A DNA stretch of 64,000 bases from a virus, in IMG/VR virus record IMGVR_UViG_3300027782_000040; one strand, given 5' to 3'. A program made the position numbers and the translations under genes. Under the pieces are notes generated by a model. The model was not told where the DNA came from, ran no database searches, and saw nothing but the letters and a program-made list of their open reading frames with translations. Within the stretch, counting starts at the first letter, position 1; each line of letters begins with the position of its first letter. Shown in pieces: positions 2,652-27,284 of the stretch.

Positions 2652-5600
2652 ATGATACAGAAGCATAGAATATCCACAAACATTGGGAAGGACCAAATAG
2701 TCAATCTTGAATTAAAACAAGATTTTGATTTTTTGGAAGTTCTATCATTAAGATTCACTCAAAAGGATGTTTATTCATCAATGTGTTCGGATTACGGTGT
2801 GGTATGTGGTAGAATTACTGTTAACAATGGTTTAGGTGTACCAAACGCCAGAGTATCGTTATTTGTTCCACAATTACAAATTCATTCAAATGATCCAGTT
2901 ATATCTGCGTTATATCCATATACAGAAATTGGGGACAAAGACAGTAACAATTATAGATACAATTTGTTACCATCAAGAAAACAACATGGCGGACATGAAC
3001 CAACCGGTACATTTTTTGACCAAGAAGATATTTTAACAAGAGAAGAAGTTTTAGAAGTGTATGAAACTTATTATTCGTATACAGTTAAAACTAATAGTTC
3101 TGGTGATTTTATGATTTGGGGGGTTCCATTAGGACAACAAACAATTCACGTTGATGTTGATTTATCTGATATTGGTTGTTTCTCTTTAAGACCTGATGAT
3201 TTTATTAGACAAGGTGCTGGTTTAGACCAATTTAAAACATCATACGCTTTTAAAGCATCAGAAGATTTAAATTCGTTACCACAAATTGTTTCATTTGATA
3301 AAACGATTGAAGTTTATCCTTTTTGGGGTAATAATGATTTTTGTGAAATTGGTTTAACAAGAACTGATTTTGATTTATCCGATAAAGGTGTAAGAATTGA
3401 ACCAAAAGCAATTTTATTAGGTTCAATATTTTCTGACCAAGGGAATAGTACTGTAAATAAAAATTGTACTTTAAGAGATGGAATGGGTAATAAATGTAAC
3501 TTAATAACCGAACCAGCAACGGTTGAAATATTAAGATTTACAAATAAAAAAGACGAAAATAATAGACCAATATTGGAACTTATGGAAACAAGTGAAGATA
3601 TTGATGATAGTGGTTCGTTTATGATTTCAGTTCCAATGAATATGGAATATGTTTACACAAACGAATTTGGTGAGAACGAAATTACAAACGACCCAAATAA
3701 AGGGGTACCAACATCCGCATGTTATAGATTTAGAGTATCAACAAAAAATGAATCATTAGGTAGGGTTAGAACTGTAGCTTCTTATTTAATTCCAAATATT
3801 AGGGAATATGCAACAACGGAATCAGAAATTGATAAATCATATACTTGGTCAACAAATTGGAATGATTATCCGACGGGGGCAACAAACAATAACATCCTTT
3901 TTAATAATGTTAATGGGTCATATTACCCACAAGATTATTTTTATAGATTTAATTATAATAAAATTTATAGTGTATCGTCATTTTTTGGATCTTATAGTGA
4001 AGGTAATTTAGGGATTACACAAATAGCACCAAAGGAGGAAGACGATTGTCAAAACAATTCACTCACACCTCCAATTAATCATGCGACACAAACAGTTACC
4101 TTCGCAATTTTATTGGCTATAATATTGAACACATTCGAAAGAATAAGTTATTACACAATCATTGCGGCTATACAGGTTTTAATTGTTCCATTTCAAGCAT
4201 TATATAATTGGCACATATACATACGTGCTTTAAAAGTAACATTGATAGATTATTATCCATTTAGGGCGGGTGGTATTATTGATGTTGATACTAAAGTTAT
4301 TGAACCATTACAAAGATTCGGTACTGTTCGTTTAGGTATTGCAATATATCCTGAATGTGAAACATGTGACAACTTAGATTATATAAATGATTTGCCAACA
4401 ACAACGACAGATCCAGAATTAACGTTTCTTAAAGTTGCAACAGGAACAGGTGTTACGGATACATCTTTATACGCCACATGTGGGGTTGAGATTTTTGACG
4501 AATCAAGTGTTAGGATATTTTTATCAATTCCAACTACTGGAACCACATGTGCATCCGTATCACCTATCTTCACAACGACAGGTACCACTATAACTAATAT
4601 TATTGATAATCCAGGTAGATACATTATAAAATTTAACGATACAGGAGAATATGGAAATCTTAGTGTTTATGGGTATGACATATCGGGATCAGGAACAACA
4701 GCATATTATTACGATGATACAACGGGTTTAAGTTATACAGGTCAAACATTACCGACAGGAAGTATAGGATATGAAATATTTGATTCACTATCATTTTTAA
4801 TTGGAGGTTCAAATACTTCAGGATTAAATAGTGAATTAGAAGGAGGATGTCAACAATATGTTACCGTGTATAAAGAATCAATTGTTTATGGAACATATTG
4901 TGCTAGTAACGCATCTACACCATATAGTGGATTAACATCGGCAAATATAAAATTAGGTACTGTTTGTACCACAGGTATAACCGTTGGTCAAGTTATTGCT
5001 GGTGTTAATAGTAATCCTTGTGGTACATGTGGCACACACAGTGGATTTTCTGAATTTAGATATGGATTATTTACAATTATACCGGCGGCGGCAATTGCCA
5101 ATTGGGGAGATAATTTTGATGCAATTACCGAATACGCAAGAAGAAAACTTGTTGCTAAAGTGTTCTGTGGTGGTATAGCAAATTATAAATTTATTGACAA
5201 TTGGTTGACCGGTTCATTATATATGTTTCCATTTAAAGCAAAAGTTAGATGGGATAATGAGGAAACATTAGATTTAAATGTTAGAAGAACAAAATATTGT
5301 CCAGATTTAGTTTATTTTAAAGCAGGTACGGTGGAAAATCCTGATAAAAGATTTTATTATAGATCTACATATTTTAATGGTACAACATTTAGTAGAAGTA
5401 GTAGAGAAAGTTTAGGTCACCCAACAACAATTGTTGATTTAGGACCAAGAGATGAATTTATAAAAGAAATATGTGTGGACCCACAATTAGACCCAAACTG
5501 TTCGGTTGTTAGAGATATTGGACCAACATCCTATCAAAATTTTAAAGAGATGTTAGGGTTATATATTAATTATAAATTAGATTATTTAGCAACAGACCAA

Positions 5601-6467
5601 AATACAACAGGTGATTACAATTCATTTTTTGAAAACAATGGATACGGTGTACCTGGAACGGTAATGAATGGGGACATTCTTCAACTAATTTCAATAAATA
5701 ATGAAGTTGGCATTGAAGAATTTGATTTACAAAATAGAAATTACGCAGCATATAATCCACAAGTGTTGGATGTTGAACAATATCCTGGATTATTGGATGG
5801 AGGACCACTACCAATAAATCTCGTATTAGATGATGGTGAAGGATATAGAGTTAGGGCATGTTTAAATGAACCCGGAAGATTGACTGAATCATCACAAAAA
5901 GTTCCATTTTACTTGTGGGAAAAAGGTGGTACAGGTTTTGGTTCGAGTGTTAATCAACATTGGGACTATACTACACCAATCTCAACTGCAAATGGTAATT
6001 TACAACCATTACAAGGTATGACCTATAATTACAAATACAGTGGAGATACGACACACAAATATTTGTTATTACCAATGACAAAACAATATAGTGGTGATAC
6101 GTTTACATATACAGGTGTAACATATAATGATGTGTATGCGGATATTGAAACAACAGGAGCAACACATACAACTTATAATAATCAAGAAGAAGGATTCACA
6201 GTACTCGAAATTGCCACAGGCACATTAGATAATCCATTAACGGGAACACTATGGATTAGAACGGGAGAAACAAGTAATTGGGCATCAAAGGCATGGACAA
6301 ACGACCTTGATTTTATGGTAAAACCAACATCAACAAATTACGATGGTACAAAACAAATACTATCAACACCATTTCTGTTTTATTTTGGATTAAGACCAGG
6401 TAAAACCGCAATAGATAAACTAATAGAAAAATACGGACCAAAAGGTGCGTTCCCGTCTGCTGAATAA
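2652..6467 (+). CDS. Large baseplate/tail structural protein
   Basis: 1271 aa with an N-terminal beta-sandwich-like part (YGVVCGRITVNNGLGVPNARVSLF), an internal hydrophobic segment and C-terminal PFLFYFGLRPGKTA. Baseplate context. Confidence 0.65.
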   Translation: MIQKHRISTNIGKDQIVNLELKQDFDFLEVLSLRFTQKDVYSSMCSDYGVVCGRITVNNGLGVPNARVSLFVPQLQIHSNDPVISALYPYTEIGDKDSNNYRYNLLPSRKQHGGHEPTGTFFDQEDILTREEVLEVYETYYSYTVKTNSSGDFMIWGVPLGQQTIHVDVDLSDIGCFSLRPDDFIRQGAGLDQFKTSYAFKASEDLNSLPQIVSFDKTIEVYPFWGNNDFCEIGLTRTDFDLSDKGVRIEPKAILLGSIFSDQGNSTVNKNCTLRDGMGNKCNLITEPATVEILRFTNKKDENNRPILELMETSEDIDDSGSFMISVPMNMEYVYTNEFGENEITNDPNKGVPTSACYRFRVSTKNESLGRVRTVASYLIPNIREYATTESEIDKSYTWSTNWNDYPTGATNNNILFNNVNGSYYPQDYFYRFNYNKIYSVSSFFGSYSEGNLGITQIAPKEEDDCQNNSLTPPINHATQTVTFAILLAIILNTFERISYYTIIAAIQVLIVPFQALYNWHIYIRALKVTLIDYYPFRAGGIIDVDTKVIEPLQRFGTVRLGIAIYPECETCDNLDYINDLPTTTTDPELTFLKVATGTGVTDTSLYATCGVEIFDESSVRIFLSIPTTGTTCASVSPIFTTTGTTITNIIDNPGRYIIKFNDTGEYGNLSVYGYDISGSGTTAYYYDDTTGLSYTGQTLPTGSIGYEIFDSLSFLIGGSNTSGLNSELEGGCQQYVTVYKESIVYGTYCASNASTPYSGLTSANIKLGTVCTTGITVGQVIAGVNSNPCGTCGTHSGFSEFRYGLFTIIPAAAIANWGDNFDAITEYARRKLVAKVFCGGIANYKFIDNWLTGSLYMFPFKAKVRWDNEETLDLNVRRTKYCPDLVYFKAGTVENPDKRFYYRSTYFNGTTFSRSSRESLGHPTTIVDLGPRDEFIKEICVDPQLDPNCSVVRDIGPTSYQNFKEMLGLYINYKLDYLATDQNTTGDYNSFFENNGYGVPGTVMNGDILQLISINNEVGIEEFDLQNRNYAAYNPQVLDVEQYPGLLDGGPLPINLVLDDGEGYRVRACLNEPGRLTESSQKVPFYLWEKGGTGFGSSVNQHWDYTTPISTANGNLQPLQGMTYNYKYSGDTTHKYLLLPMTKQYSGDTFTYTGVTYNDVYADIETTGATHTTYNNQEEGFTVLEIATGTLDNPLTGTLWIRTGETSNWASKAWTNDLDFMVKPTSTNYDGTKQILSTPFLFYFGLRPGKTAIDKLIEKYGPKGAFPSAE

Positions 6468-8248
6468 TGGAAAAGAAACAAATCATATTACCAAGTAAAA
6501 AGTTCGCAAAGGCGGATGACCAAGAATTAGAATTAAAACTAAATCTTGATAATAGTGATACACTTATGCGAATAGGTGAAAGGGATATAATATTAGATAT
6601 AGATGAACAATATTATAAAGAACGTAATGAAAGTATAAATTATAAGATATACGGAAAATTAAAAATGATTTTTAGAAATTTATATTCCGGTAGTACAGGT
6701 TCATATGAACCTTTAACGAAGAGTCTTTATTTAAATGGTGATGGTAGTGATAATAATTTCAATGGATTTTTACCATATGATGAATTTGCATTTTTAAGAA
6801 GGGACGTTTATAGGGAAGTAAATTTACCAGTAACTGGAAATACAATAGGGACCTTTACACCAAATATAGTAAAATCAGGATCAACGGCACACACAACTAT
6901 AACACCAATATCGGCACCATATCAAAATTGGAATTTATATTTAAGTTATGTGTATAGTGGTGATAGTAATTTTAATATGGTTTATACGTTAACAGGTGTA
7001 ACAGGTAGTACGAAAGTTAGTTTTACCGCTAAAGATGGTATACCATTTAGGGTTGTAAATTATAACACATACTATGAATTGACATCACCAGTTGAACATG
7101 GAATGAACGAAGGAGAACACGTGGTTTTATCAGGTGGAACGTTAACAGGATTATCAAACCCAACTGGTTCAACATTTTATATTAATTCAGTTGGTAATGA
7201 AACATTTGACTCTGGAAAATATGTTATTAATATTTTAAAGTCACAAATAAAAACAGGAACAACACTCAATACAATTATGTTAGGTAAAAGATGTAAAGAT
7301 TTTACCAATATCGTTCCCTCAACATCTAAATATTACGTTCACAAACATAAAACATTAACTAACACAGGTGGATATATAATGGATTCACTTGGATTTGAAA
7401 GTCCAGTGTTTGAAGATGAGAAAAAATTGTTACTTGAAAATAGTGCAGGAATAAATGATGTTGTGGTTGAAAGAAATAGAATGGAATCTGTTTTATACGA
7501 TTTTAAAGAACCATTTAAATTAAGCGGATTAACAAATAATTTAGGATTTAGTCCAACAAATGTTTTTGTTACTGCAATTTTTAGAAATGGAAATGGATAT
7601 TTTAATTATCCACCAAAGGTTGGATATAAATTTAATTTCCACGATACGTGGATTGATGAACATTTTAGTGGAACTACGTCAAACGAAACAAGTTTAACAA
7701 GTTCTGGATTTACAAAAAGTGGAGTTACATTTTTAAGTGGTCAAACATTACCAATCGGTTCAATATTAAATGGTGCCTTTGTTGAGTATAATCCAAAAGA
7801 AATGACCGAAAGAATTGTTAGTGAAGCATTTCATAAAATCACAAATCCCACAAATATATTTGACCATAATCAAGATATGAATGTAGATGGTTTTAGTGGT
7901 GCCACATCTGGAAATACAATGGGATTAATATACCAACCACATTATAGAATTAAATTAAGAGAATTATCACCATATACTGAAACGGCAAATACTAATGATA
8001 TTTTCAACTTACCTGAAAATGCAAAGTATGACCCATATGATAAAGTTTGGAGATGGAGAGATATATATGACCATGGTTATGTTGATTCCGATGGATTCGG
8101 AACAGATTTTCCTTTTATGAATGGAAATCATTATGTTAAAGCAAACATTAATTTCTATTTAAGAAATGAAAGATATTATAAAAATAAATCAAATGGAATA
8201 ATGAATTTCATGGATGTAAATAATAAAAATAGTAATTCAGATTGTTAA
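6467..8248 (+). CDS. Putative virion structural protein
   Basis: 593 aa, translationally coupled within the structural block, rich in [ST]GxT. Confidence 0.6.
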   Translation: MEKKQIILPSKKFAKADDQELELKLNLDNSDTLMRIGERDIILDIDEQYYKERNESINYKIYGKLKMIFRNLYSGSTGSYEPLTKSLYLNGDGSDNNFNGFLPYDEFAFLRRDVYREVNLPVTGNTIGTFTPNIVKSGSTAHTTITPISAPYQNWNLYLSYVYSGDSNFNMVYTLTGVTGSTKVSFTAKDGIPFRVVNYNTYYELTSPVEHGMNEGEHVVLSGGTLTGLSNPTGSTFYINSVGNETFDSGKYVINILKSQIKTGTTLNTIMLGKRCKDFTNIVPSTSKYYVHKHKTLTNTGGYIMDSLGFESPVFEDEKKLLLENSAGINDVVVERNRMESVLYDFKEPFKLSGLTNNLGFSPTNVFVTAIFRNGNGYFNYPPKVGYKFNFHDTWIDEHFSGTTSNETSLTSSGFTKSGVTFLSGQTLPIGSILNGAFVEYNPKEMTERIVSEAFHKITNPTNIFDHNQDMNVDGFSGATSGNTMGLIYQPHYRIKLRELSPYTETANTNDIFNLPENAKYDPYDKVWRWRDIYDHGYVDSDGFGTDFPFMNGNHYVKANINFYLRNERYYKNKSNGIMNFMDVNNKNSNSDC

Positions 8249-8249
8249 C

Positions 8250-10061
8250 ATGAAAATATTAAGAAAAGATACTGATTTAAATATATTATTGAATACTGAA
8301 ACTGATTTTCAAACAAATCTCGGTTGGGAAGAAAACTTGAAAGAATTTGAAACTGAAATATTAAGTGATATTATTAACCCAATTGAAAATTATGAAACGG
8401 TTAGATATATTCATAAACCATATACGTCTAGTGGAGTAACACAAACCGATATTTGGTTTTATTTTTATTTTCAAAGCGGTGGAACATATGTTCAAGATTA
8501 TACCCCACAAGGTATAAGTTCACAAGAAAATGAACATATGTTAAAACAGGCGACTGAGAGTTTTTTTAGATTAGAGTTTTTTAAAACACCAGGAACTGTA
8601 TCAAGTAATATATTAACATGTGAACCACCAACAAGACAAAATAGAAAATTAATATTTGCAAAAAATTTGTCATTACCGTTAGGTGAGAAAATGTTTTATA
8701 ATCCACTTAATGGTTATATACATTTACCTGTTTTTAGAGGATCAAATTATAGTAATAAAGAAAATATGTATTTCTTTTGGTTCCAAGATGAAAGTGTTTT
8801 AACTGAAACTAATTTAAGTGGTACAACAACAGGTAACACCTTCTTTATGACAGCAAAGTTTTATAATGCAAAAGAAGGTACAATTTTAGATTTTACAAAT
8901 GATTGTTACAGTACGGGTCACACTATTACTGAACAAAATGATATGTACTATCAAGTTGATATTAATAAAACAGATTATTCGTATCAAGTTTATTATTACA
9001 ATGGTGTAGTAAAATGTGAAGAAGTTGGTTTTACAAACAAACCAATAATGTTTTTTGAAAGAGGAGGTGGAACGGCACCAACTAACATAGTATATCACAC
9101 ATGTTCAAATGTAACACCTACACCGACACCAACTGCAACCCGTGTAGCAACACCAACACCAACTCCAACTCCAACACAAACTCAAACACCAAGTGGATCA
9201 TCATCGGGACCAACTTATTATAGTGATGTTGTTGGTCGGAGCGCATCGTCAGTAAGTGATGCTTGTAGTCAAGTAAGTACAATTGGGGTTACGGGAAGTG
9301 GAACCTTATTCTGTAATTCGGCAACATTTACATCTACGGACGGATATTCAATGGGTACTGGAAATTATTATTTATCAAACGGTTCAAAATATGTACAAGT
9401 ATCACATACTATTTATACGAATCTATTTACTGTCATCGGTGGTGGTTGTACAACATGTCCTGGCGTAACAATATACGATTGGTACACACTTGAAAATTGT
9501 TGGGACCAAACTACTGGTTATACAACAGGTCTTACAGTAGGAACATATGCTGTAAATAATAGAGTAACAACATTTTTAGATATTGGTACAATATGGAAAG
9601 TAATTGCAATTAGCTCAAGTAATCCGGCACCATTAATAAATAAAATATCTGTCGCACCAAGTTTAGATTATTTTAGTGCAATACAAAATGGTTGTCCACC
9701 AATATTTGAATATTTTTTAAGTGATCCATATACAGGTACCACATTATTCTGTTCATCACCTGGTAAATCAACTGGAACATTAATAAAAACGTTTTCACCT
9801 ACAATATCAGAAATTTTAAATTATCCAGTTTATAATTCAAGTAAAGTTTTATTTGAAGGTGCGGGTAATGATTATAATTATTTTATTTCCACCTCTGCTG
9901 GTGTAAATTCATATACAAACGGTAGCACACCTTTAAGTAACAATAGAATATTAATAAAAATTGACGGTACAATAACAAACAACGGTGCAGGAACCCCTGG
10001 TTACGTTTTAGATGTATATTCAACACCTTGTAGTGGAGGTGGCGGAGGAGGAAACTTATAA
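8250..10061 (+). CDS. Putative virion protein with Pro-Thr linker and Cys-containing C-terminal domains
   Basis: 603 aa. TPTPTP linker at about 9112-9195. Confidence 0.6.
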   Translation: MKILRKDTDLNILLNTETDFQTNLGWEENLKEFETEILSDIINPIENYETVRYIHKPYTSSGVTQTDIWFYFYFQSGGTYVQDYTPQGISSQENEHMLKQATESFFRLEFFKTPGTVSSNILTCEPPTRQNRKLIFAKNLSLPLGEKMFYNPLNGYIHLPVFRGSNYSNKENMYFFWFQDESVLTETNLSGTTTGNTFFMTAKFYNAKEGTILDFTNDCYSTGHTITEQNDMYYQVDINKTDYSYQVYYYNGVVKCEEVGFTNKPIMFFERGGGTAPTNIVYHTCSNVTPTPTPTATRVATPTPTPTPTQTQTPSGSSSGPTYYSDVVGRSASSVSDACSQVSTIGVTGSGTLFCNSATFTSTDGYSMGTGNYYLSNGSKYVQVSHTIYTNLFTVIGGGCTTCPGVTIYDWYTLENCWDQTTGYTTGLTVGTYAVNNRVTTFLDIGTIWKVIAISSSNPAPLINKISVAPSLDYFSAIQNGCPPIFEYFLSDPYTGTTLFCSSPGKSTGTLIKTFSPTISEILNYPVYNSSKVLFEGAGNDYNYFISTSAGVNSYTNGSTPLSNNRILIKIDGTITNNGAGTPGYVLDVYSTPCSGGGGGGNL

Positions 10062-10070
10062 AAAATAATA

Positions 10071-10946
10071 ATGAAAAGAATTAACCATACCATTAAAAGA
10101 AAAAAAATACCTGAAGTGAAATTAGTTTCATTAACAGGTAAGACATGGTACGATTCAAATAATAACCCAACACCATGGACGGGTGACACTGAATTTTTAG
10201 TTACAGGTTTTACACCCGACACAGGTTATGTTGTTTATAACGTAACCGGTGGAACTGTAGATGGTGGTTATTATTATAAATGGAATACACCAACAGAAGA
10301 CACATGGAATTTAATTGTTGGTACAGGTACGACAGAACAAGAAATAGAAACCCATGTTAATAGCCAAATACATGAAGATTTTCAACTACCATTATTTTTA
10401 GAAGCAACGGCTGATGAAATGGGAGATATGGTTGATTTTGATAAAAATATTGGACATAATGAAATTAGTGCAAACTTCGCATATGAAAGTGTTTGTACTG
10501 AAACTGGTAGTACAATAACAATTAACAACACAACAACATATCAATTAGTTAATATAATTTTGGCTAATGATACGAATCCAGACGGAACAACGAATGTAAC
10601 GAGTGTTAGAAGATTGGCTACAGAAATATCCGAACAAAATGTTTTAGACGAATTAGAAGATTTTTTAGTGGTTGATGGACAAGATTTTTCAATATCGGGA
10701 TCATCATTTACGGTACATTGGGGAGACGAAACAACATCACCAATTGGAATTAATGGTAGTGTAACAAAATCATTTGATGTTGCCGAAGAAAAAACAATTA
10801 GAATAGTTTTTGAGTCACCATATTTAACAAATCAAGTGGTTAAAGTTGTTAATTGTGGTGAAACTGCAGTGAGTTACATGAGAATTAATACCGAAAACAA
10901 TGACCCTATTCAAAGTGAAAATAATAATTACATAAATGTCGATTAG
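10071..10946 (+). CDS. Putative structural protein with PKD-like C-terminal part and terminal TENxxxIxSENN motif
   Basis: FTVHWGD PKD-like motif. Ends INTENNDPIQSENNNYINVD. Confidence 0.55.
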   Translation: MKRINHTIKRKKIPEVKLVSLTGKTWYDSNNNPTPWTGDTEFLVTGFTPDTGYVVYNVTGGTVDGGYYYKWNTPTEDTWNLIVGTGTTEQEIETHVNSQIHEDFQLPLFLEATADEMGDMVDFDKNIGHNEISANFAYESVCTETGSTITINNTTTYQLVNIILANDTNPDGTTNVTSVRRLATEISEQNVLDELEDFLVVDGQDFSISGSSFTVHWGDETTSPIGINGSVTKSFDVAEEKTIRIVFESPYLTNQVVKVVNCGETAVSYMRINTENNDPIQSENNNYINVD

Positions 10947-14925: not shown

Positions 14926-17900
14926 ATGAGTATAACCGGAGGTACATTCAGTGTTGATTGTTTAATAAGTGATGTCTCATCATCAACAAACGATTGTGGA
15001 GTTCAAAAAACTTTAACATGGTCTAATGCTGGTACCAAATCAAATATACAAAGTTATTTCTTCAATTATAATCAATTAAATAACAAAATTCCGGTTTATG
15101 TTTTCATAAAACCAAAAGTCAAAAAGTTATTTAAATTTACATTCACACCAGGTTCAAATAACGGTTCAAATATTACTATTAATATTAATCAAAAAATAAA
15201 CGGTGTTTATACGTTAGTAGATGTTGAAAATTTAAATACGCTATCTACTGAGACTTCAAAATATATTACACTTTATTTTGATGAAAATAAAAATGATGAC
15301 ATTTCACTAACTTTAGATATCATTACATCAGGTGGAACGAGCGGACAAATGTATTGTGAAATTGATTGTGACCCTGCAATAATAAGTGCTGAATTTTGTA
15401 CTGGATTTACGAACTCAAATTATTATTGTACAACATGCCCAACAGTTGTAAAATTATATAGAGCTAAAACACCTAATTTACCACCAATAAATGGTATTTT
15501 GAATATTAATTCTGGATTTAGTAATTTCTCACCTTTCACAACAGGACCTTGGTATTTGGATAATGGATTAACAATTGAAGCACCTTCAGGTGTAACATAT
15601 TCTTATGCTTCTGGAGATATTGCAAAAAGATCAATATACACATATAATCCATCTACACATTCTTTTATATTACAATCAAGTTGTTTAGGAAGTAATTCAA
15701 ATTGCGGGGGAGATGTTATTTTAACACATAATTTAAGTGGATATACATATTCTCATCCATACATACCAACTAAAAGCGAATTACCAAGTAATGGTTTAAA
15801 ATACTCAATACAAGATTTAATTATAACTTTAGATAGTTCAAATAAAATTGTACCTATAACAATTTCAATAACGGGACAATGTAAAGATGCTTGTTTTACT
15901 ATTTCTGATGGTGTTAATAATAGTCACGCTGGTAATGTAAGTTATACAGATAATTATTCAGCAACTCCACCATATTTTGTTAAAGTAACTGATTACACAT
16001 CTTTAAAAGTTCAAATGACAAATATTGGTACACGTGGAATAACCGCGGTAACAAACAGTGGTCAAATAAGAATAAGGGTTGCAATTGGACAATCAAAATC
16101 ATATAATGGTTCTTCTGTTGTAACTAAAATTTCAGTTGGTTGTGGAACTACAATTTTTGGGTATGATATGGGAGTACATCCATATTCAGCGTACGATTCA
16201 TATAATAGTCCAACCGCGGTAACTAAATTATGGTCATATAATAATATTAGTACATGGTCAGGTTCAACAGATAATTACTCAACCAAAGGTACATGCGTTT
16301 ATAATGATGTTTTATTAACAAATTTAGCATTACCATATTATTATGCCGATAACATTAGAACATCTAACACAAACAAAGTTTATGAAATAGGTAATATATT
16401 ACAAAGAAACTTTGGAACACATACAGATTATAAAATAACTAAAAAAGCATTTGGACCTAGAAAAACATCACCAATAGTTTCAGGACCTAAAGATTTTACA
16501 AACCTTAAAAATAGAGGTGATGAAGTTTTAATATCGGGAGAAAATTTAATACCTACATCAATTGAACCAACAATGAACGGTATTGGTTTAGTACGTAAAA
16601 TATTATCAACATCAGATTATTATCAACCTTCAGTTTACAAATATTATTTAGGTTATACCTCAGGATTTACTGAGTCTAATTCTAATGATACATTCTTCAC
16701 TACTTGGAATTTTTCAAATTCTACAGCTAAACCATTAACTGGATATCAACATATGTTAATGAAATTATCTGCAAGTTACATAGGTGGTACAAACGTACCA
16801 GATTTAATTAATTTATTAAAAGATGATAAAAGAGTTGAAGCTGGTTTTATGGGTGCTGCCGTATCAAGTTTACTTCTTGCTTGTGCAGGTTATCTTCCTG
16901 TGGCAGAGGGATTGTCACTTTTTGCATCATTTTTTTTAACTGTACCTGGATTATTGGTACTCGCTTTTGCTTATTTAGCGGTAAAGTTTATTGTGGATGC
17001 ATTAAAAACACAAAATATAACAATTAAAGAAAAGTTCACATATTTTTACACTAGATATGCAACAACACCATATCTAACAACTGGAACAACAATTTATAAA
17101 ACAAGTACTTTAACAACATGGAGTACGGGTATATATAATGACGGTGCATATTTTTACAATATTCCATCAAATTCAAATAATGGTAAACCAACTACAAAAA
17201 CATTATCATATTCTACAAATGATGGTATAAGAACAAATTCATTTGATGTTATTAATACAAGTAAAATAAATTATATTACAGATTTTCATAGTTTATTTTT
17301 TTTAAGTTATGTTTCAGGTTATCCTGTTAAATTTAATACAAACCCAACATTATATTCAAGTAATTCATTATCAATAACTGTATCGGCGGAAACTTCAAAT
17401 ATCGGTGATTTAAACAACCCAATACCTGTTGTGTATTCTTTACCTTCGGGACATTCTGTTTCAACAATTTCACAAGAAGATGCGGATAGTAAGGCCGCAG
17501 GTTTTCTTTCTTCATTAACAGGTAATACAATTAGTTTATCATCATATGAAGAAAAACCAGGAATTGTTGACGTACAATTAAATTTCACACACGAAATTAA
17601 AAATGAAAACATACCAAATGTTTTTATTTTGAATTATGATAATTCGGATGAAAATGGAATTACAATTGGTAAAAAATTATATTATGATTATAATGGTAAG
17701 TCCACAGTATTAAATGGTTATTATTCATTGGTAGGTACTTCACCATATAGAACCATATATAAAACAGTAAATGGTGTTGTTACAGATATACTTACATGGC
17801 AAAACAGTAATGAAAATTATGTCACATCGGTAACAACTGGAACAGGTGCAACTATAAATACACTTTTAGATTATACAAGTGAATGGTATATAGGTTCTAC

Positions 17901-20900
17901 GAATCATGAATTAATAAATTTGAATTATACTAATAATCAAGATAGTTTAATAACAAATTGGAATACAAATACATTTTACTCTGGAACAACAACAGGTGTC
18001 ACAGTTAATAAAGGTTTTACAAATTCATTGGCAGCACCCACCGAACTTTATTTTTATGACGATAATTTAACGGGTTTAACTTATAATGTGGCAGATGATG
18101 GAAAATATAAAGCAATTTATCCATTTAATAGTTTAATTTTCACATATCGTAATCCTTTTACGATTTTAATTAATGCGGAAGAAATTAGTGACCTCGATAA
18201 TGATGATAACGGTATTAATTTTTATTTAACCGATATTAGTGGTAACACTGTACCATCATATGTTGGTGTTACTTTTAATGTTAATATTTTTACAGGGTCA
18301 ACGAGTTTACTTTCATCTGAAAGAATAACAATTGATTCAGATGAAACGAATCAGTTTTTATATTTAAATATTCCTCAAACAGGAGGCACACTAACGTCAT
18401 ACAACATAACAAGTTATGAATCTGAAAACCCATTTGATAAAATAACTTTTATTCAAAGTGGATTTACACAAAGTACAGGTGTAACTACTTGTCCGTATTA
18501 TACGGGAACAACATATATTGTCGATTCATATGGTTATGTACAATACAATAGATTTAATACGATTAATAATGGTTTTATAACTGAAGTTATTTATGTCTCT
18601 GAGGCTATATATGAAATTACAGACCCAATTCAATATCAATCATTAGTTCCTGTTGTAGATACTGAAACGTATTATCCACCCGCAAATATTAGAATTTTAG
18701 AAACAGGAGTTTGTTATGTCGTACCAACTCCAACTCCAACCCCAACAATAAGTTTAACCCCAACACAAACAGGAACACCAACTCCTACACCAACAGTAAA
18801 CTGTTCATTCGGTGTTAGCATTGTAATATTAACTCCAACCCCTACTCCAACAGGAACAGGAACCCCAACACCTACTCCGACAATAACTTTAACACCAACA
18901 GGAACAGGAACACCAACTCCTACACCAACAGTAAACTGTTCATTCGGTGTTAGTGTTGTTGTATTAAGTCCAACACCTACTCCTACACCAACTGGTACCC
19001 CAACTCCTACACCAACAATAAGTTTAACACCTACAATAAGTTTAACACCAACAGGAACTCCAACAGGTACTCCAACAGGGACACCAACAGGAACGCCAAC
19101 TCCTACACCAACTCCTACACCAACAATAAACTGTTCGTTCGGAGTGAGTATAGTGGTATTAAGCCCAACCCCAACCCCTACTCCAACAGGTACTCCAACA
19201 GGAACACCAACACCAACACCAACAATTAGTGTTACACCGACAATTAGTGTTACTCCAACTATTAGTGTTACACCAACTGGAACACCAACTGGTACACCAA
19301 CTGGTACACCAACTGGTACACCAACTGGAACACCAACTCCAACACCAACAGTAAATTGTTCATTCGGCGTTAGTGTGGTCGTATTATCACCAACCCCAAC
19401 CCCTACACCAACAGGAACACCAACCCCTACACCAACAATTAGTTTAACGCCGACAATAAGTTTAACCCCAACAATTAGCTTAACGCCAACAATTAGTTTA
19501 ACTCCAACAATAAGTTTAACACCAACAATAAGTTTAACACCAACAAGAACTCAGACACCTACACCAACAGGAACACCAACTGGTACCCCAACACCAACGC
19601 CGACAGTCAATTGTTCGTTCGGTGTCAGCATTGTTGTATTAAGTCCAACCCCAACACCAACAGGAACACCAACAAAAACTCCAACACCAACTCCAACACC
19701 AACTGGTACACCAACAGGAACACCAACTGGTACACCAACAGGAACACCAACCCCTACACCAACAATTAGTTTAACGCCGACAATAAGTTTAACCCCAACA
19801 ATTAGTTTAACTCCAACAATAAGTTTAACACCAACAATAAGTTTAACACCAACAATAAGTTTAACACCAACAAGAACTCAGACACCTACACCGACACCAA
19901 CTACATCGTTACCGGCATTAACGGTATCGGTAAGTTCAAGTACATTACAATCATGCTATAATGTTAGTGATGCATCATTTACATTAAGTGCGAGTGGTGG
20001 TAATGGTGCGTCATATGAATATTCCAAAGATGGTACAACATACCAAGCAAGTGCAACATTTAGTTCATTAGCGGGTGGTACATATAATGGTTATGTTAGA
20101 AATACAAATAGAACTGGAACTGTTGCATCAGTTTCAGTTGGAAGTTTAGTAAGAACAGCACCAAATGCAACAATAACGGTTACAAATGTAAGTTGTAATG
20201 GTGGAGCTGACGGACAAATTGCAGTAACATCTGGTACGGGTGGAACAGGTAGTGGATATAGTGGATCAACAGATGACGTTACATATTTTGCATTACCAAA
20301 AATATTCTACACATTAACTCAAGGTTCTTATGATGTATATATTAAAGATAGTAATGGTTGTAAACAATCTTACGCACAAACAATCACACAACCAACAGCA
20401 CAAGTATGTAATATTTCAGTATATAGTTATGATACCGGAACAGGAGATGGTCAAATCGCTGTGGTAGTTTCAGGAGGAACAGGACTTAAAACTCTTAAAT
20501 TGTATCAAGATACATCTACACCATATAGCGACTACTCAACTGATACATTAATACAAAGTGGCACTTCTGTCGCTAATAATACAACATATTATTTTACAAA
20601 TGTACCTTGTGCAGCAACTAGTCTTTGGGTTCAATGTACGGACGCAAATAATTGTGTAATACATTCTAATACGTCGGTTAAAACTTGTGGATATTTCCAA
20701 ACGTTTCCAGGAACATTTAAACTTGGTAATAACTTAACGTGTACACCACAATCGCCATTTAGTAGAATTTACTTAGGTTCAATTGACTATAGTAATTTTG
20801 TTGCAAATGGTGGTATGTTAAGTACTGGAATGGTATTATATACCGATGGTAGTGGTACCATTTATACATTTAACACAATTTATGATTCTACCTCTACAAA

Positions 20901-20952
20901 TATATACAATGTATCGTCAGGTGTTGTTGGAGGAGTTAAATCACTTTGTTAA
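14926..20952 (+). CDS. Giant adhesin-like virion protein: DUF5977-like motif, Pro/Thr stalk, SprB-like repeats
   Basis: [12 protein letters not shown] motif, about 400 aa Pro/Thr region, [16 protein letters not shown]...[11 protein letters not shown] SprB-type repeat. Confidence 0.7.
18721..19905 (+). repeat. Pro/Thr coding repeat: 5 x [VI]NCSFGVS[IV]V[VI]L units separated by PT, PTGT and TISLTP runs
   Basis: Units start near 18796, 18931, 19126, 19351 and 19606. 18-nt TISLTP tandem repeats are also present. Confidence 0.9.
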
Positions 20953-21003
20953 AAAATAAAAAAAATGACGATATTTATAATAAAAGAAATTAAAATTTAA
21001 AAA

Positions 21004-21711
21004 ATGCCAGCAGGACCAATAATCGGAACATCTCAAGTTAGTTTACAATTAACAGGGGGATCATCAGTACCAAATAACTTTACTGTCGATATATATTCAT
21101 GGGACGTTGCAACCGACGTCGCAGTTTATAATAGAACTATCATTACGGGTTTAACAAGAACAGCAACATCGGCGGTAAATGGAGGTTCATTAGCCGTATC
21201 ACCATATTATGGGATTACAGGCATAACAGGTTTAGATAACTATGTTAAATTAACCAGTACAACTTCATGTAGTACAACTACAACACAAGATATCACAAGT
21301 GCAGCATTAACGGTATACACCCCCAATTCAGGAACATTAACTGAAGATTATCCATCAGGGGCGGAAGATAGCTTTGCCACCACTGGTATGGGTGCCGGCA
21401 CTTTATCTCCCGGCTCACATCAAGTTGCACAACTCACAACATTATCTTATTTAGACGCGGCCGATTTTACTTTGAGTTATTTAAGTGGAACCACCGTTTC
21501 CACTGGTTTAGTAGTTGGAGGTGCATATACATATGGACCATTTAGTAGTTTTTCTGTAACAAAATCGGGTAAAGTATTTTCATTATTTGGGTCGGCAAAT
21601 ACAAGTTTAAGTGCACTAAATAGTAGTATACATGGTGTTATGAGGTTAACATACAATCCTTCAGGATATTATGTTAATTTTAATTATTATTATGTACCAA
21701 CTTCACTTTAA
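21004..21711 (+). CDS. Putative virion protein
   Basis: 235 aa, S/T/G-rich, preceded by TATTTAT. Confidence 0.6.
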   Translation: MPAGPIIGTSQVSLQLTGGSSVPNNFTVDIYSWDVATDVAVYNRTIITGLTRTATSAVNGGSLAVSPYYGITGITGLDNYVKLTSTTSCSTTTTQDITSAALTVYTPNSGTLTEDYPSGAEDSFATTGMGAGTLSPGSHQVAQLTTLSYLDAADFTLSYLSGTTVSTGLVVGGAYTYGPFSSFSVTKSGKVFSLFGSANTSLSALNSSIHGVMRLTYNPSGYYVNFNYYYVPTSL

Positions 21712-21791
21712 TCTATCCCTTTATTTACATTAAATTAATCTTTATATTACCTAAAACCTAATAAAGATATTTATAGGTGTAAATAATTTAT

Positions 21792-22349
21792 ATGTCAGAT
21801 TTATTTGGAAGTATGTCTTTTTATGTTCCGTCTTACCCAATGTCGGGTGAAACACAATCTGTAGTAATACAAAATTATTTAAACGATTATGAATATACCC
21901 CAACAACGGGATATACCACAACAGGTTTTACTTATTTAGGTATTGGAGGTAGTAAGTTATCCGAATTAAAAAAATACGGAGCAACAGGATATACACAAAC
22001 ATTAACAAGTGGATCAATAACAGGAGGAACAACTTGGACGGGTTATACATTTAATTATACACATAATACCACTGGTTCCACAAGTTTACAATATAGAGAT
22101 TATTCTGACGGGTACACCATGATTACAGGTAGCACTACAGGGTTTACCAAGGAGGAAGTGATTAACTATACCCTGACAAGAAACGAGCATTTTTTGGGGT
22201 TTGTAGAACAACCAACCGTTTATTCTGACATTTTTGTGGAACGAGGTAAATTGGGAGTTATGGAAAGGAACTTCAGGTTAAGTGAAATTGATAGTATGGG
22301 TGAATTGAGTATATATGGAAATGGGTATTTTAAAGTTAGAAAACAATAA
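21792..22349 (+). CDS. Putative virion/baseplate protein
   Basis: 185 aa with nine [ST]GxT motifs, preceded by TATTTAT. Confidence 0.6.
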   Translation: MSDLFGSMSFYVPSYPMSGETQSVVIQNYLNDYEYTPTTGYTTTGFTYLGIGGSKLSELKKYGATGYTQTLTSGSITGGTTWTGYTFNYTHNTTGSTSLQYRDYSDGYTMITGSTTGFTKEEVINYTLTRNEHFLGFVEQPTVYSDIFVERGKLGVMERNFRLSEIDSMGELSIYGNGYFKVRKQ

Positions 22350-22374
22350 GATTTATATTTATTAATAAAAGAAA

Positions 22375-23283
22375 ATGGCAGTAGGATCATATGGTATTGT
22401 AAGACCCGCAGACGTATCACCAGCAGACGTAGAGATATTATATCATTACGTTTCGGGTAGAACTGCGAACGTTACACCAACATTAACAAAATTAGATTCC
22501 ACAGCAATATTAACACCGGTATTTCATAATGAAAATACAGGTGGTGTTGCAAATAAAGAAATTTTAGGTGGTTTATATAATCTGAAATTACAAGCGGGTC
22601 AATTCTCTGATTTGGGAATTTACACATTACATTTACGTCCTAAACAAGTTAGAACAAATATTATGGATTGTGGAGTTTTAGCGTCACTTCCATCAGTTAG
22701 AGGTTTAGTCATTGACATTGGTAATGTACCGGTTGACGACCAAGGAAAATTCACACCACAAGGATTAGTTGGATATAGAATTGAATATATTAATAAGACC
22801 AATTACCAAAAAGTTCCAAACTTTTATAGATTGGTAACTTCATCTTTTTATTGTGTACCAACTACTGCAAATTTATCAAACTCAACAGATAAGGCGATTA
22901 GGTATCAATATACCGATTCCCAATCTAACTTTATATTTTTAACAGTAACACCAAGTTCATCACCATCAAGTAGACCAAATGTGGTTCCATTTATCGGTGA
23001 ACCAGGTCAAACTATTATTTTAACAAATACATTCTTCAACCCAACAACGGTTGAAATTGAAATGGTTGAACATGACGCATCAACATTGGCACACGCACTT
23101 TACGGTGACCAAACTAAGGCAATTGCTCCAGGTATTTACACTATCTACGATAAGGATAAGAATATCTATAAACAATACAATCTTTATGAAATTAAAGACC
23201 AATTTAACGAGACATTATATGAAGTTCGTGAAGAAAGAACAAGTATTGATGAAACATTAAATTTAGATAACATAACAGGATAA
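22375..23283 (+). CDS. Putative baseplate/tail structural protein
   Basis: 302 aa, coupled to the next gene, preceded by TATTTAT. Confidence 0.6.
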   Translation: MAVGSYGIVRPADVSPADVEILYHYVSGRTANVTPTLTKLDSTAILTPVFHNENTGGVANKEILGGLYNLKLQAGQFSDLGIYTLHLRPKQVRTNIMDCGVLASLPSVRGLVIDIGNVPVDDQGKFTPQGLVGYRIEYINKTNYQKVPNFYRLVTSSFYCVPTTANLSNSTDKAIRYQYTDSQSNFIFLTVTPSSSPSSRPNVVPFIGEPGQTIILTNTFFNPTTVEIEMVEHDASTLAHALYGDQTKAIAPGIYTIYDKDKNIYKQYNLYEIKDQFNETLYEVREERTSIDETLNLDNITG

Positions 23284-25745
23284 TGGCTAAAGTAAGATAT
23301 AAAGTTCCAAGTGAAGCTGCTAGTGGTGTAGAAACATTTAGTGATAAATTAGTCGGCACACAGATTACTGATGGTACTAGTCAACTGACTAATACGAACT
23401 TTGATATTAATAGAGTCATTCCTGAAAAAGATAGTAAGGATTTTAAATCACAACCTTTTTCTGATTTCTTAACATTGAAAGATTTAAAGGAAGAATTAAG
23501 TGCCGCAACCACACAAAATGGTAGAGCAAAGAAAAAAGAAAAAATTAAATTTAAAGGTGGAATTAATGATGCTGGTAAATCTTTATATGGTTCATTAAAA
23601 CAAAGATTACAAGTATCAATATCAGATATTATTACAAACTTTCCTGCCGCAATATTAGTTGATAAAGATAGTCCCATTAAAAGTGTTGACGTCACATTAT
23701 CAGGAATAACATATAGTGAAAGCGCAAAGACAACTGATTTTTATATTCAGAAATCAATTTTATTTAATCCGTTTGATATTACACTTATTAAACCATTAAG
23801 TAATACTTTACCGACAACTGATAACACAATAAGAAATTTTTATTCTTCATATACAAAATATGTTTTAGTTTATAATAATCTAACATATGATATTGTTTCA
23901 TATACCGAACCTAACGCATTAAATTTAATTAAATTAAAAGTTAAAGGAAAACCATTCACAGGTTCAACAATAAACGATAGTGTTTTAATAAGACCAAATG
24001 ATGGAATTACCGAAGAATTTTTTAGTGGGTTAGATGAATTAGAAACTCTTTTATTAAATAGAGAAACTAATCCAAAATATCAAGCAAGTTTTAAAGTACC
24101 GAAAGATAGTTTAGATGAAACTAAAACTGAAATCGTTAATGTATATGTTAATTGGCCAACAACAAAAGATGGTTGGAATTTACAAATTGTTGGTATTGAT
24201 TATGCAGATTACATTAGTCAATTAAGTAGTTTAGGTGATGAGATTGATGATTACAAATCTAATTTAATTATAAGATTTTTAACCGCACCACAATTATTTG
24301 AGTTTGATACGGATGACCAAAAAGCACAATCAATATTTCAATTATACGGTCAGTCATTTGATAGAGTAAAAAAATATATAGACAATATTGCTTACATGCG
24401 TAATGTAAGTTATGATGGAATAAATAATGTTCCCGATGTGTTATTGAAAAATCTTTCACAAACACTAGGACTTACAACTACAAATCTATTTGATGAAAAA
24501 ACATTAGAGGATACATTATACACTAGACAAAATAGTGTATTTGATGGTTTATTAGTTGGTAAGACATTAATAGAGGCGGAGTATGAATTTTATAGAAGAT
24601 TATTAGTTAACCTTACTCATCTATATAAATCTAAAGGAACTAGAGTATCTATAGAATTTTTCTTAAAATTCTTAGGTGCACCTGAACCAATGATTAAAAT
24701 TGAGGAACACGTATACAATGTAACAAAATTACCAAACAATCCTAATTTAGAAACCGATTTATATGATGTAATTCAAGGAACAAAAGTTGATACTGTTATT
24801 ACAGGAACAACTGCAGTTACGGGAAGTATTTTTACATATTATAGTGGAGGAACAACAGGATTAACAAGTGGATATACGTTTGCAACTGGTTCAGTTACAA
24901 GTTCATCAACATTAAGTAGAGATGAATATCCAATTGATGAAAATGGATTACCAAGAAAAACAACAAATTTATCTTCAGACATATTTTTCCAAAAAGGTTC
25001 AGGATGGAATGATTTAACTTTAGAACATAGGTCTAGTACAATTATTGATACGGATTTATCTAGTGGATCATTTGTCAATGGAGTTTTTCAATTAACAGGT
25101 AGAACTAAAACCATTAAAACAAAATCAAAAGATTATACATACGGAGAAGAATATTTTGATAATTTTAGAACACTACCAGGATTAGACTATGGGTTTAACA
25201 TTAAAGGTTCAATAGATAATAAAAAGGCATCTGTTGTTACTGACGATGACTCATCTAAATTAATTCTTAATAGAAAAAATATTAACATATATCTATCACC
25301 GTCACAAACTATTGATTATGACGTCTATAGAAGATCAAGAAATAATAGTAAAACATTTGGTAATTTAACACCTCAAACAGGAGTAACATTTGAAGAGTTT
25401 TTAATATCCTCTTTAAGTAAAGTAATAACAAATTCAAATAGTATTAAATTTAGTAAATCATACAGTGGATTAACAAATGTTTTTTATGATTATTCCACTA
25501 ACACCGGATTCACCCCATATAACTTCACATCGGTTAATGAGTTTATAAACAAAATGAGTCCGTCATGGTTAAAAGTTGTAGAACAATTTGTTCCATCAAC
25601 TACATTATGGACAGGTGGAAACTTAATTGGAAATAACATTTTTAATAGGTCAAAATACGATTATAGAAAACCAAGATATGGTATACCTATTACAGGTAGC
25701 ACAACTTATGATAGTGTAACATTTAATTGTGAAGAAATAGAATAA
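23283..25745 (+). CDS. Baseplate protein with P2 gpI/tail-I-like motif
   Basis: VPDVLLKNLSQTLG...LYKSKGTRVSIEFFLKFLG. Confidence 0.7.
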   Translation: MAKVRYKVPSEAASGVETFSDKLVGTQITDGTSQLTNTNFDINRVIPEKDSKDFKSQPFSDFLTLKDLKEELSAATTQNGRAKKKEKIKFKGGINDAGKSLYGSLKQRLQVSISDIITNFPAAILVDKDSPIKSVDVTLSGITYSESAKTTDFYIQKSILFNPFDITLIKPLSNTLPTTDNTIRNFYSSYTKYVLVYNNLTYDIVSYTEPNALNLIKLKVKGKPFTGSTINDSVLIRPNDGITEEFFSGLDELETLLLNRETNPKYQASFKVPKDSLDETKTEIVNVYVNWPTTKDGWNLQIVGIDYADYISQLSSLGDEIDDYKSNLIIRFLTAPQLFEFDTDDQKAQSIFQLYGQSFDRVKKYIDNIAYMRNVSYDGINNVPDVLLKNLSQTLGLTTTNLFDEKTLEDTLYTRQNSVFDGLLVGKTLIEAEYEFYRRLLVNLTHLYKSKGTRVSIEFFLKFLGAPEPMIKIEEHVYNVTKLPNNPNLETDLYDVIQGTKVDTVITGTTAVTGSIFTYYSGGTTGLTSGYTFATGSVTSSSTLSRDEYPIDENGLPRKTTNLSSDIFFQKGSGWNDLTLEHRSSTIIDTDLSSGSFVNGVFQLTGRTKTIKTKSKDYTYGEEYFDNFRTLPGLDYGFNIKGSIDNKKASVVTDDDSSKLILNRKNINIYLSPSQTIDYDVYRRSRNNSKTFGNLTPQTGVTFEEFLISSLSKVITNSNSIKFSKSYSGLTNVFYDYSTNTGFTPYNFTSVNEFINKMSPSWLKVVEQFVPSTTLWTGGNLIGNNIFNRSKYDYRKPRYGIPITGSTTYDSVTFNCEEIE

Positions 25746-25766
25746 TAATATAAATATTTATAACAT

Positions 25767-27284
25767 ATGAGCTTTTTAAATACAGGATATTCAGCAACGG
25801 TCGCAGCAAGATTAACACAAAAGGGTAGAAACTCTATTGCAAAAGGTAATTTTGTGGTAAGTTACTTTGCTGTGGGGGATTCTGAATACAATTATAATAC
25901 AGGAACAACTCAAAATATATTATCACCATTTGACAAAGATAGTCATGTAAAATACCCAATTTGGTATACAAGTGGAAGTACATTTTTTGGAATACCGGTA
26001 GATAGTTCAAATACCACAATATGTAGGAATTTGGTCACAGCAAATAGTGATTGGACATTAAGTACGGTTTGGGATAAAAATCCGATTGGATTATCAAATA
26101 TATATACATCTAATGCGTATGTTGGGGTTAAAAATTTATTAGGTTATTCATCATCTTCAGGACAAACATATAATACAGGAACAACAATATATGACACTAC
26201 TGGAACTCCGGTAATCATTTCACCTGAAGAACAAAAAGCAATTGCAATATTACATTATACACAGAGCGGAACCACTGGAGACCCTTATAGGTTCTTTAAA
26301 TATGATGATTACATCTGTATTGATAATACATCGGGTCAAACATCGTTTAATGTGACATTGACCTCAATTATGTATCACAGATTAACGGGAGCAACATCGG
26401 GAGCAACATTTACTATGGGAACCGTTGATAAAAAAATGGTATCTAATTACAACTCAAGATATGAATTACCATATAGAGATTTAGTAGATTATGCTGGTAA
26501 TACGGTTGGTAAAATATTTCACAATCAAAAACTTGTAGTATTTGATGATGAGGAAATTGTTGCAGCATTAGACACAGGATCAACGAGAAATTATACATTA
26601 ACAGCACCAAAAGTGGATACTTTAGTAACAACTAATTACCCAATTACTGGATTAACAACAACAGGTAAAACTATGTGGGTTACGTATAAATTTAGTGGAG
26701 GTACAGTATCTGATGATTTACCTTGTAATTATTTTATGAAAGTTACAGGGTCAACAAATGATGAAAATGTTACTGTTAAATTTAGTAGTGGTGGATTTAA
26801 ACATTTAAATAATGGTTATACTGCAACTCAATTTCATATATTACATCAATTAACAGATAACGGAGTTCAACCAACACCAAATAATTGGAAAATTAGGGAT
26901 TACACAAGTGACTTAAGCGCAATCAATGATTTAAAAACCGGATTTACATTTACAATCAACCAAACCAAAATCACCGAAGCCATTGCAGTAGGAAATTATT
27001 CATCTTCATTATCAGGTTTTGGTGTAGATAGAGCGTTGTCTGGTGGAACTATTACAGGCACGGTTGCATTGGTAAGGTCAAGTGATATTGAAGAAATGGT
27101 CTTTAATTTAAATCTACCCGATGGTAAATTCACAACATCCCAAAACCCAACATTTACAGGTACATCTAAAATAACAGAAGTGGCTTTACTTAATTCTAAT
27201 AAAGAAACATTAGCAATGGGTAAATTATCGTCACCAGTAACAAGAAGTGGTAGTCAGGTAATCCAAGTTAAAATTGATTTCTAA
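25767..27284 (+). CDS. Tail-collar/fibre attachment protein (DUF3751-like termini)
   Basis: ARLTQKGR...YFAVGDSE at the N-terminus. ITEVALLN...MGKLSSPV...VKIDF at the C-terminus. Confidence 0.65.
   Translation: MSFLNTGYSATVAARLTQKGRNSIAKGNFVVSYFAVGDSEYNYNTGTTQNILSPFDKDSHVKYPIWYTSGSTFFGIPVDSSNTTICRNLVTANSDWTLSTVWDKNPIGLSNIYTSNAYVGVKNLLGYSSSSGQTYNTGTTIYDTTGTPVIISPEEQKAIAILHYTQSGTTGDPYRFFKYDDYICIDNTSGQTSFNVTLTSIMYHRLTGATSGATFTMGTVDKKMVSNYNSRYELPYRDLVDYAGNTVGKIFHNQKLVVFDDEEIVAALDTGSTRNYTLTAPKVDTLVTTNYPITGLTTTGKTMWVTYKFSGGTVSDDLPCNYFMKVTGSTNDENVTVKFSSGGFKHLNNGYTATQFHILHQLTDNGVQPTPNNWKIRDYTSDLSAINDLKTGFTFTINQTKITEAIAVGNYSSSLSGFGVDRALSGGTITGTVALVRSSDIEEMVFNLNLPDGKFTTSQNPTFTGTSKITEVALLNSNKETLAMGKLSSPVTRSGSQVIQVKIDF

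Follow-up and report, generated by a model that had tools for sequence, protein, structure and literature searches.

The DNA analysed here, hereafter the window, is a stretch of 64,000 nucleotides from a huge freshwater phage (IMG/VR record IMGVR_UViG_3300027782_000040), and the element in question is a tetrapeptide, [ST]-G-x-T, dispersed through a series of proteins of probable virion function encoded next to the baseplate genes. On the + strand the window contains a gp25-like baseplate wedge gene (305..763; PHROG 261/43 baseplate wedge, E 4e-16), a baseplate J-like wedge gene (765..2597; PHROG 219/6, Pfam Baseplate_J), 12 tightly packed genes reaching to position 27284 and a ruvC-like gene, which is followed by genes for primase, exonuclease, a split SbcD, SbcC, ClpP, a sigma factor and others. 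The 12-gene block consists of one collagen-like fibre (10985..13330; Pfam Collagen, E 1.5e-59) and 11 orphans without Pfam or PHROG family; none of the motif-enriched proteins gave a Pfam or PHROG profile match, known fibre repeats such as Collagen and Phage_fiber_2 included. A virion role of the 11 orphans is suggested by their position after the baseplate genes and by their relatives.

Expected motif numbers were obtained from 2000 composition-preserving shuffles of each protein. The 11 orphans located between the J-like and the ruvC-like genes contain 113 copies of [ST]-G-x-T against about 19 expected, and nine of them lie above all 2000 shuffles, with z values from 5.0 to 17.3 and enrichments of 5-20 fold. 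The highest enrichment in the window corresponds to a 593-residue tail protein (6467..8248; 15 motifs, 0.7 expected, z 17.3), followed by a 505-residue tail protein (25767..27284; 15, 1.4 expected, z 11.6), an 820-residue tail protein (23283..25745; 11, 1.1 expected, z 9.5), a 185-residue protein (21792..22349; 9, 0.9 expected, z 8.6), a 1271-residue distal-baseplate or fibre protein (2652..6467; 13, 1.8 expected, z 8.4), a 291-residue orphan (10071..10946; 6, 0.5 expected, z 8.0), a 603-residue tail protein (8250..10061; 9, 1.7 expected, z 5.7), a 439-residue orphan (13296..14615; 9, 1.7 expected, z 5.6) and a giant orphan of 2008 residues with Thr-Pro linkers (14926..20952; 22, 8.0 expected, z 5.0), all of them on the + strand and these roles being putative. 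The two remaining orphans, also on the + strand, are a 235-residue protein in which the excess is not significant (21004..21711; 3 motifs, 1.2 expected, p 0.11) and a 302-residue protein that is not enriched (22375..23283; 1 motif, 0.3 expected). A previous inspection of the letters and open reading frames (ORFs), the sequence-only reading, had counted by hand 9, 15, 15, about 11 and more than 10 motifs in the 185-, 593-, 505-, 820- and 1271-residue proteins, and all these counts were reproduced; the nine motifs of the 185-residue protein (SGET, TGYT three times, TGFT twice, TGGT and TGST twice) are situated between residues 18 and 119.

The same reading held the motif to be essentially absent from the core wedge proteins and from primase, SbcC, ClpP and sigma, and this also stood. 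The gp25-like and J-like proteins, which serve as internal negative controls, contain none (0.06 and 0.44 expected, respectively), and the 26 listed genes from 27323 to 50777, among them those four, add up to a single motif against 2.0 expected. Apart from the virion block and the collagen-like fibres, [ST]GxT appears just once, in the Walker A loop (GTGKT) of an AAA ATPase (49374-50462), P-loops being a trivial background source of the tetrapeptide in genome-wide counts. The collagen-like fibres, despite their extreme content of Ser, Thr and Gly, are at or below the shuffle expectation: that at 10985..13330, on the + strand, has 2 motifs against 8.3 expected (z -2.4) and that at 57192-61724 has 9 against 16.8. 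In their Gly-x-y register Thr seems to be excluded from the y position that would create the motif.

When gapped tri- and tetrapeptides were scanned without bias, only the Thr-Pro linker patterns of the 2008-residue protein ranked above TG.T and SG.T. Synonymous codon usage at the motif positions equals the background, so that the signal resides in the protein and not in the DNA. Distances between motifs range from 3 to 578 residues without a period, 85 of 102 gaps exceeding 6 residues, and a few sites are in tandem (eight spacings of exactly 4 residues). An all-against-all BLAST of the carriers yielded weak, motif-driven matches only; at the sensitivity of BLAST, therefore, the carriers are unrelated, as had been supposed, and a hidden domain common to them was discarded.

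The requirements at each position of the motif are dissimilar. At position 1, Ser (6.1x) and Thr (5.6x) are enriched, while Ala, Asn, Asp, Gly and Pro do not exceed 1x. Position 2 admits only Gly in the lineage of the window (Ala, Asn, Asp and Ser at most 1.3x), and position 4 only Thr (Ser 0.9-1.5x, Val 1.2x, Ile 0.7x, Asn 0.5x). Position 3 is near background, which agrees with the variable middle residue described from the letters, except for Pro (1 observed against 5.8 expected, binomial p 0.018), a modest depletion with a baseline inflated by the Thr-Pro linkers. Combinations with turn formers are not enriched (NG.T 0.84x, DG.T 0.99x), nor are those with β-branched aliphatic residues at the end (1.2x for [ST]G.V, 0.68x for [ST]G.I). 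The lack of enrichment of Asn-Gly and Asp-Gly disfavours a generic turn or strand-starter and suggests instead that the hydroxyl of Thr is required. Outside the tetrapeptide there is hardly any preference, save a mild one for hydrophobic residues, which make up 49% of position -1, against a background of 32%, and 45% of position +4. Taken together, the pattern looks like the specificity of an enzyme for its recognition sequence.

The location of the sites was analysed in predicted structures and alignments. In the tail sheaths of six relatives from two sub-clades, all 49 motifs are confined to the middle blocks, where conservation is poor, and the conserved core formed by the N and C termini has none. 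It is the conserved termini of known contractile sheaths that build the inner core, the variable insertions being directed outward. The 593-residue protein was modelled by AlphaFold2 from an alignment of 84 sequences with a mean predicted local distance difference test score (pLDDT) of 86 and a predicted template modelling score of 0.84. Secondary structure was assigned to this model with DSSP. With regard to the expectation that the motifs would map on exposed loops, about 10 of the 15 sites in the model are mostly coil, two are all-strand, one has the E--E pattern of a hairpin and the rest are at strand ends. Given such heterogeneous contexts, the sites do not correspond to one regular structural element. 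Regular β-solenoid turns, named beforehand as an alternative, were rejected as well, the spacing having no period and the contexts in the model being mixed. Foldseek searches of the PDB with the model gave no match at E <= 0.001, the best VIA-align score, Z 7.2, was for a single small barrel domain, no characterised fold being reached, and BFVD returned an uncharacterised homologue only. The C-terminal Cys of this family (codon at 8245) shows no variation among 19 close orthologues and a conservation above 90% in the alignment of 84 sequences, which suggests a disulfide, a metal site or lipidation. The AlphaFold2 model of the 185-residue protein was poor (pLDDT 50). This protein is modular, with a hypervariable, indel-rich N-terminal region of about 120 residues that carries all the motifs and a near-invariant, motif-free C-terminal region of about 60 residues that is conserved across 24 orthologues, down to 53% identity; the arrangement looks like that of an anchor domain with a variable display domain.

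In IMG/VR more than 597 relatives of the J protein were counted, contigs of 211-310 kb among their sources; the 50,697 phage records catalogued in INPHARED include no close one. The relatives of the window are myovirus-like genomes of 300-310 kb with about 35% G+C, from freshwater metagenomes. In three near-complete ones (G001, G004 and G009) a bS21 gene adjoins the head genes in the opposite orientation, in G001 with the capsid gene nearby; none was found in G003, which is 63% complete. In this they are like the bS21-encoding huge phages of Chen et al. (2022, PMC9723584), whose predicted hosts are freshwater Bacteroidetes, mainly Flavobacteriia, and the main text of that paper contains no occurrence of 'glycosyl', tail fibres or collagen. 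The closest large relative is G003 (L009, IMGVR_UViG_3300044633_003049), with a J protein 97% identical and a provirus class in IMG/VR; its matches to the glycosyltransferase families GT2 and GT1 are clustered at 21-41 kb, and part of the contig may be host DNA or a mis-join.

Enrichment of the motif recurs in these relatives. In G001 (310,691 bp, 93% complete) 9 of 331 ORFs are enriched at p < 1e-3: four fibre-block genes, the tail sheath (11 motifs, 1.6 expected), a giant protein of 4057 residues and three other orphans. The gp23-like capsid protein is just short of the threshold (4 motifs, 0.55 expected, p 0.002). The orthologue of the 505-residue protein in this genome (721 residues) has 14 motifs against 1.2 expected, and 40 orthologues of the 185-residue protein have 3-15 against 0.4-1.4 expected. 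For the 593-residue family a profile search reached 509 cluster representatives; a search of IMG/VR started from a single motif-poor homologue (P0011) had given no match, and the alignment-based search did find relatives. The number of motifs is usually 9-16 in close orthologues (58-92% identity), one pair having 5, and falls to 0-5 in full-length homologues of the same length at 21-42% identity. At 14 of the 15 sites of the window protein the distant homologues mostly have gaps or unrelated residues, site 74 being the sole old one (kept in 21 of 48). It follows that the fold came first and the motif was added to it later, in part through newly inserted loops. The close orthologues have about 13 sites each, spread over 37 distinct alignment columns, with Gly and Thr as the most conserved positions and x as the least, a comparison that indicates that sites turn over between orthologues while the density stays.

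A sister clade behaves differently in its choice of tetrapeptide. Its homologue of the 593-residue protein is motif-poor, and its neighbouring tail genes have 200 SG.T against 37 expected and 191 TG.T against 47. In addition, S-A-x-T is enriched in its tail proteins (103 observed, 16 expected) and not in the window (11 observed, 8.5 expected). Examples among the sister-clade loci L196-L275 are L265:18035 (764 residues; 7 against 0.6 expected) and L205:16936 (1605 residues; 6 against 0.7). The idea that related phages might swap the motif for another one was thus answered in part, the sister clade adding S-A-x-T to an [ST]-G-x-T that is enriched there too; such drift would be expected if the reader protein co-evolves with the motif. 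As controls, gp34-38 of T4 were not enriched (8 motifs, 4.7 expected), the genes downstream of J in Flavobacterium phage immuto, the nearest cultured phage by J protein (27% identity), had 20 against 11.6 expected and were counted as unenriched, and the uncultured 484-kb phage LR756508, with a homologous J, had 2 against 2.05. Because none of the three shows the enrichment, the habit is not general to fibres or to Flavobacterium myophages. The 10 kb upstream of J code for replication enzymes and not for core tail genes.

It had been suggested that glycosyltransferase genes be sought in the rest of the genome. The search was carried out in the relatives, and it was there that such genes appeared: each genome has three to seven GT2 matches, and two glycosyltransferases are common to all nine large relatives examined, both of them in virus-only clusters named glycosyltransferase. 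One is GT-A-like, of about 260-290 residues with an invariant ExDD and 42-69% identity; no homologue of it was found in the 50,697 catalogued phages, immuto and LR756508 included. The other is GT-B-like, of about 405 residues and 46-67% identity, and belongs to PHROG 7162. In G001 (L102:150-6246; 260150-266249) the two genes are 5 kb apart, bracketing a dUTPase, a PhoH-like ATPase and several ORFs of no known function, and the locus lies just upstream of the head-region genes. A ThyA-family gene is present in one of three near-complete genomes and no ThyA-type hydroxymethylase is conserved, which weakly disfavours glycosylation of hydroxymethylated DNA bases as the conserved role. Besides, G001 contains an operon of eight genes (L094:7470-14573; 107470-114576) in the order GT4, GT4, 93-residue ORF, GT2, 252-residue ORF, Methyltransf_24, Glf and GT2. 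Its Glf is a uridine diphosphate (UDP)-galactopyranose mutase (E 1e-73), and by gene content the operon is a predicted pathway for a methylated glycan containing galactofuranose. The operon is also present in G002. A search of eight other large genomes gave no Glf, so the cassette is accessory; as a marker of the clade Glf was discarded, occurring in G001 and G002 only.

We propose that [ST]-G-x-T could be an acceptor sequon at which enzymes encoded by the phage O-glycosylate the exposed surfaces of the virion, a reading to which we assign a probability of roughly 0.4. In the model, the tetrapeptide would be a clade-specific short linear motif under selection on exposed, variable parts of virion proteins, located on distal tail and fibre proteins in the window and, in the relatives, on the outer domains of the sheath and, to a lesser degree, on the capsid protein. 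A phage-encoded O-glycosyltransferase acting on proteins in the cytoplasm would read it, and glycans attached to the motif Thr, to the Ser/Thr hydroxyl or to both would coat the surface of the assembled particle. The candidate enzymes are the two glycosyltransferases of the clade core, the GT-A-like protein of about 270 residues with its invariant ExDD and the GT-B-like protein of about 405. Variable accessory cassettes, as the one with Glf, a methyltransferase and four glycosyltransferases, would diversify the glycan. The coat would possibly shield the particle from proteases or host receptors, or mediate adhesion. That the enzymes act on proteins and recognise the motif, and what the coat is for, we infer. 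A more speculative extension is that the whole clade glycan-coats tail, fibres, sheath and capsid by means of a tetrapeptide sequon, [ST]-G-x-T plus S-A-x-T in the sister clade, which the two virus-only core enzymes would read; both the sequon and the accessory glycan cassettes would have diversified from one lineage to the next. The 2008-residue protein might offer a second kind of acceptor. Eight (TP)n or (TPTG)n tracts at 18724-19770 (residues 1267-1615), each ending in IS, IN or VN, separate its repeated modules, and a shorter tract is found at 9150-9182. In secreted bacterial enzymes, linkers of Pro and Thr are a classic target of O-glycosylation, and by analogy those of the phage protein could be modified as well.

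Several observations weigh against the proposal. Glycosylation of the motif Ser/Thr is a prediction from the comparison of sequences, and the exposed placement one from variable blocks and modelled secondary structure. No glycosyltransferase was detected in the 64 kb of the window by tblastn with eight enzymes of one relative (seven glycosyltransferases and Glf; best E 0.16) or by partial Pfam and PHROG scans, in line with what had been seen by eye. The core enzymes match solved glycosyltransferases with weak profile scores (E 0.005) that are uninformative on the acceptor, and their setting next to dUTPase and PhoH could also fit nucleic-acid or other targets. The co-occurrence of enzymes and motif sets one clade against outgroups, which amounts to effectively one independent contrast, and glycosyltransferases are common in huge phages. 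Proline depletion at position 3 is modest, and the weak hydrophobic lean at -1 and +4 also fits a strand-turn-strand role. Finally, avoidance of the motif in non-virion proteins was considered and rejected, as G001 showed no depletion (83 observed, 53 expected).

Three other explanations were weighed. That the peptide has no function and is a by-product of composition, of low-complexity repeats or of a DNA signal (nucleotide motif, slippage or 12-nt duplication) could be thought because the carriers are rich in Ser, Thr and Gly and the eight spacings of exactly 4 residues could stem from short duplications. It is nevertheless highly improbable: none of the 2000 shuffles, the comparison suggested at the outset, reaches the observed count in any of the nine enriched proteins, the collagen-like fibres, even richer in those residues, are not enriched, the motif codons follow background usage, the spacing is aperiodic and the enrichment recurs in dozens of diverged orthologues. 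Hence a composition artefact was rejected by the shuffles and the fibres, a DNA-level motif by the codon usage, and chance, composition and DNA-level signal are effectively excluded. A second explanation dispenses with modification and sees in the motif a structural idiom, a kink, β-bulge or two-residue hairpin connector (Phi-[ST]-G-x-T-Phi) reused in β-rich surface loops or domains. The mild enrichment of hydrophobic residues at both flanks, the β-rich character of the carriers, the sites at strand ends with one fitting an E--E hairpin, and the conservation in position of some sites such as site 74 are all compatible with it, and the conservation of Gly and Thr is also what a structural role predicts. 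Yet Asn-Gly and Asp-Gly are not enriched, Val or Ile cannot replace Thr, the predicted contexts are heterogeneous, the same fold occurs with 0-5 sites, and the sites shift freely between orthologues. Moreover, the Ala taken at position 2 by the sister clade is a poor fit to the positive phi that a glycine would be needed for, and neither the T4 fibres nor a Flavobacterium myophage with a homologous baseplate has the habit. We regard a structural idiom as unlikely, and the data agree better with a factor that acts in trans and reads a short exposed motif.

Such a reader, or a ligand, might be of another nature: the motif could serve for phosphorylation, methylation or acylation, for docking of a chaperone or decoration protein (the latter already contemplated in the sequence-only reading), or as a hydroxyl-rich loop binding anions or sugars for weak multivalent adhesion to host polysaccharide. 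The traits that recall a sequon (strict positions with a free x, overlay on an older fold, turnover at kept density, exposure) fit these possibilities equally. In the loop of flavodoxin that holds the phosphate of flavin mononucleotide, (T/S)-x-T-G-x-T, the T-G-x-T can form an anion-binding nest. A nest of the flavodoxin type would be a precedent for the binding alternative, and the string occurs in PMC7084853. On the contrary, no kinase, decoration protein or chaperone candidate turned up, in work that did not include a systematic search for them, a tetrapeptide in heterogeneous conformations makes a poor fixed binding pocket, and the glycosyltransferases conserved in the clade are a more direct candidate reader. 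These alternatives are possible, on the improbable side, and a phage O-glycosyltransferase is, tentatively, the most concrete candidate for the reader.

If the glycosylation proposal is true, glycosylated virion surfaces would be predictable from sequence alone across hundreds of uncultured genomes, and conserved orphan glycosyltransferases of phages would acquire a function. It would bear on host recognition, protease resistance and stickiness of the particles in the lakes where these phages abound, and would provide a phage counterpart to the glycan shields of eukaryotic viruses. Even without a glycan, a motif selected across a clade marks the exposed parts of structural proteins that otherwise resist annotation, and would aid both their annotation and structure-function work.

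To our knowledge, glycosylation of phage particle proteins has been shown for few groups only, and we know of no phage sequon; a search of the available literature for TGxT or SGxT as a named motif of such kind found nothing relevant. Mycobacteriophage glycosyltransferases, often together with methyltransferases, have been proposed or reported to decorate structural proteins. The likeness to the system put forward here, which is proposed from sequence alone, would be that phage glycosyltransferases coat the virion surface in the host cytoplasm. In mycobacteriophages, siphoviruses of Actinobacteria, the acceptor is reportedly a Ser/Thr-rich C-terminal extension of capsid and tail-tube subunits, whereas here a tetrapeptide is dispersed in tail, fibre and sheath proteins of huge myoviruses with predicted Bacteroidota hosts, and not in C-terminal tails. 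Even if glycosylated, then, the window's system would not be of the mycobacteriophage type.

Known sequons are N-x-[ST], in which x is not Pro, and D-[ST]-[AILVMT] of the general O-glycosylation of Bacteroidota. [ST]-G-x-T would share with both that it is a short motif with a free position, disfavours Pro, is scattered on unrelated exposed proteins and undergoes gain and loss of sites; it differs from them in the residues. O-glycosylation in Bacteroidota is periplasmic and acts on exported proteins; virions, being assembled in the cytoplasm, should escape it. The glycosyltransferases encoded by the chlorovirus PBCV-1 glycosylate its major capsid protein at non-canonical sequons, and viral enzymes also make the methylated sugars. 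The arrangement proposed here would likewise be a virus-encoded, host-independent, cytoplasmic glycosylation of structural proteins; PBCV-1 differs in that it is a virus of eukaryotes, its glycans are N-linked and borne by one capsid protein, and its sequons are others. The AAH/TibC autotransporter heptosyltransferases are cytoplasmic and modify many Ser/Thr of β-rich adhesins through a short strand-loop-strand element. The phages would resemble them in a cytoplasmic O-glycosylation directed to a short element rather than to a long sequence, and the two depart from each other in the heptosyltransferase fold and the β-helix repeat substrate of the bacterial system.

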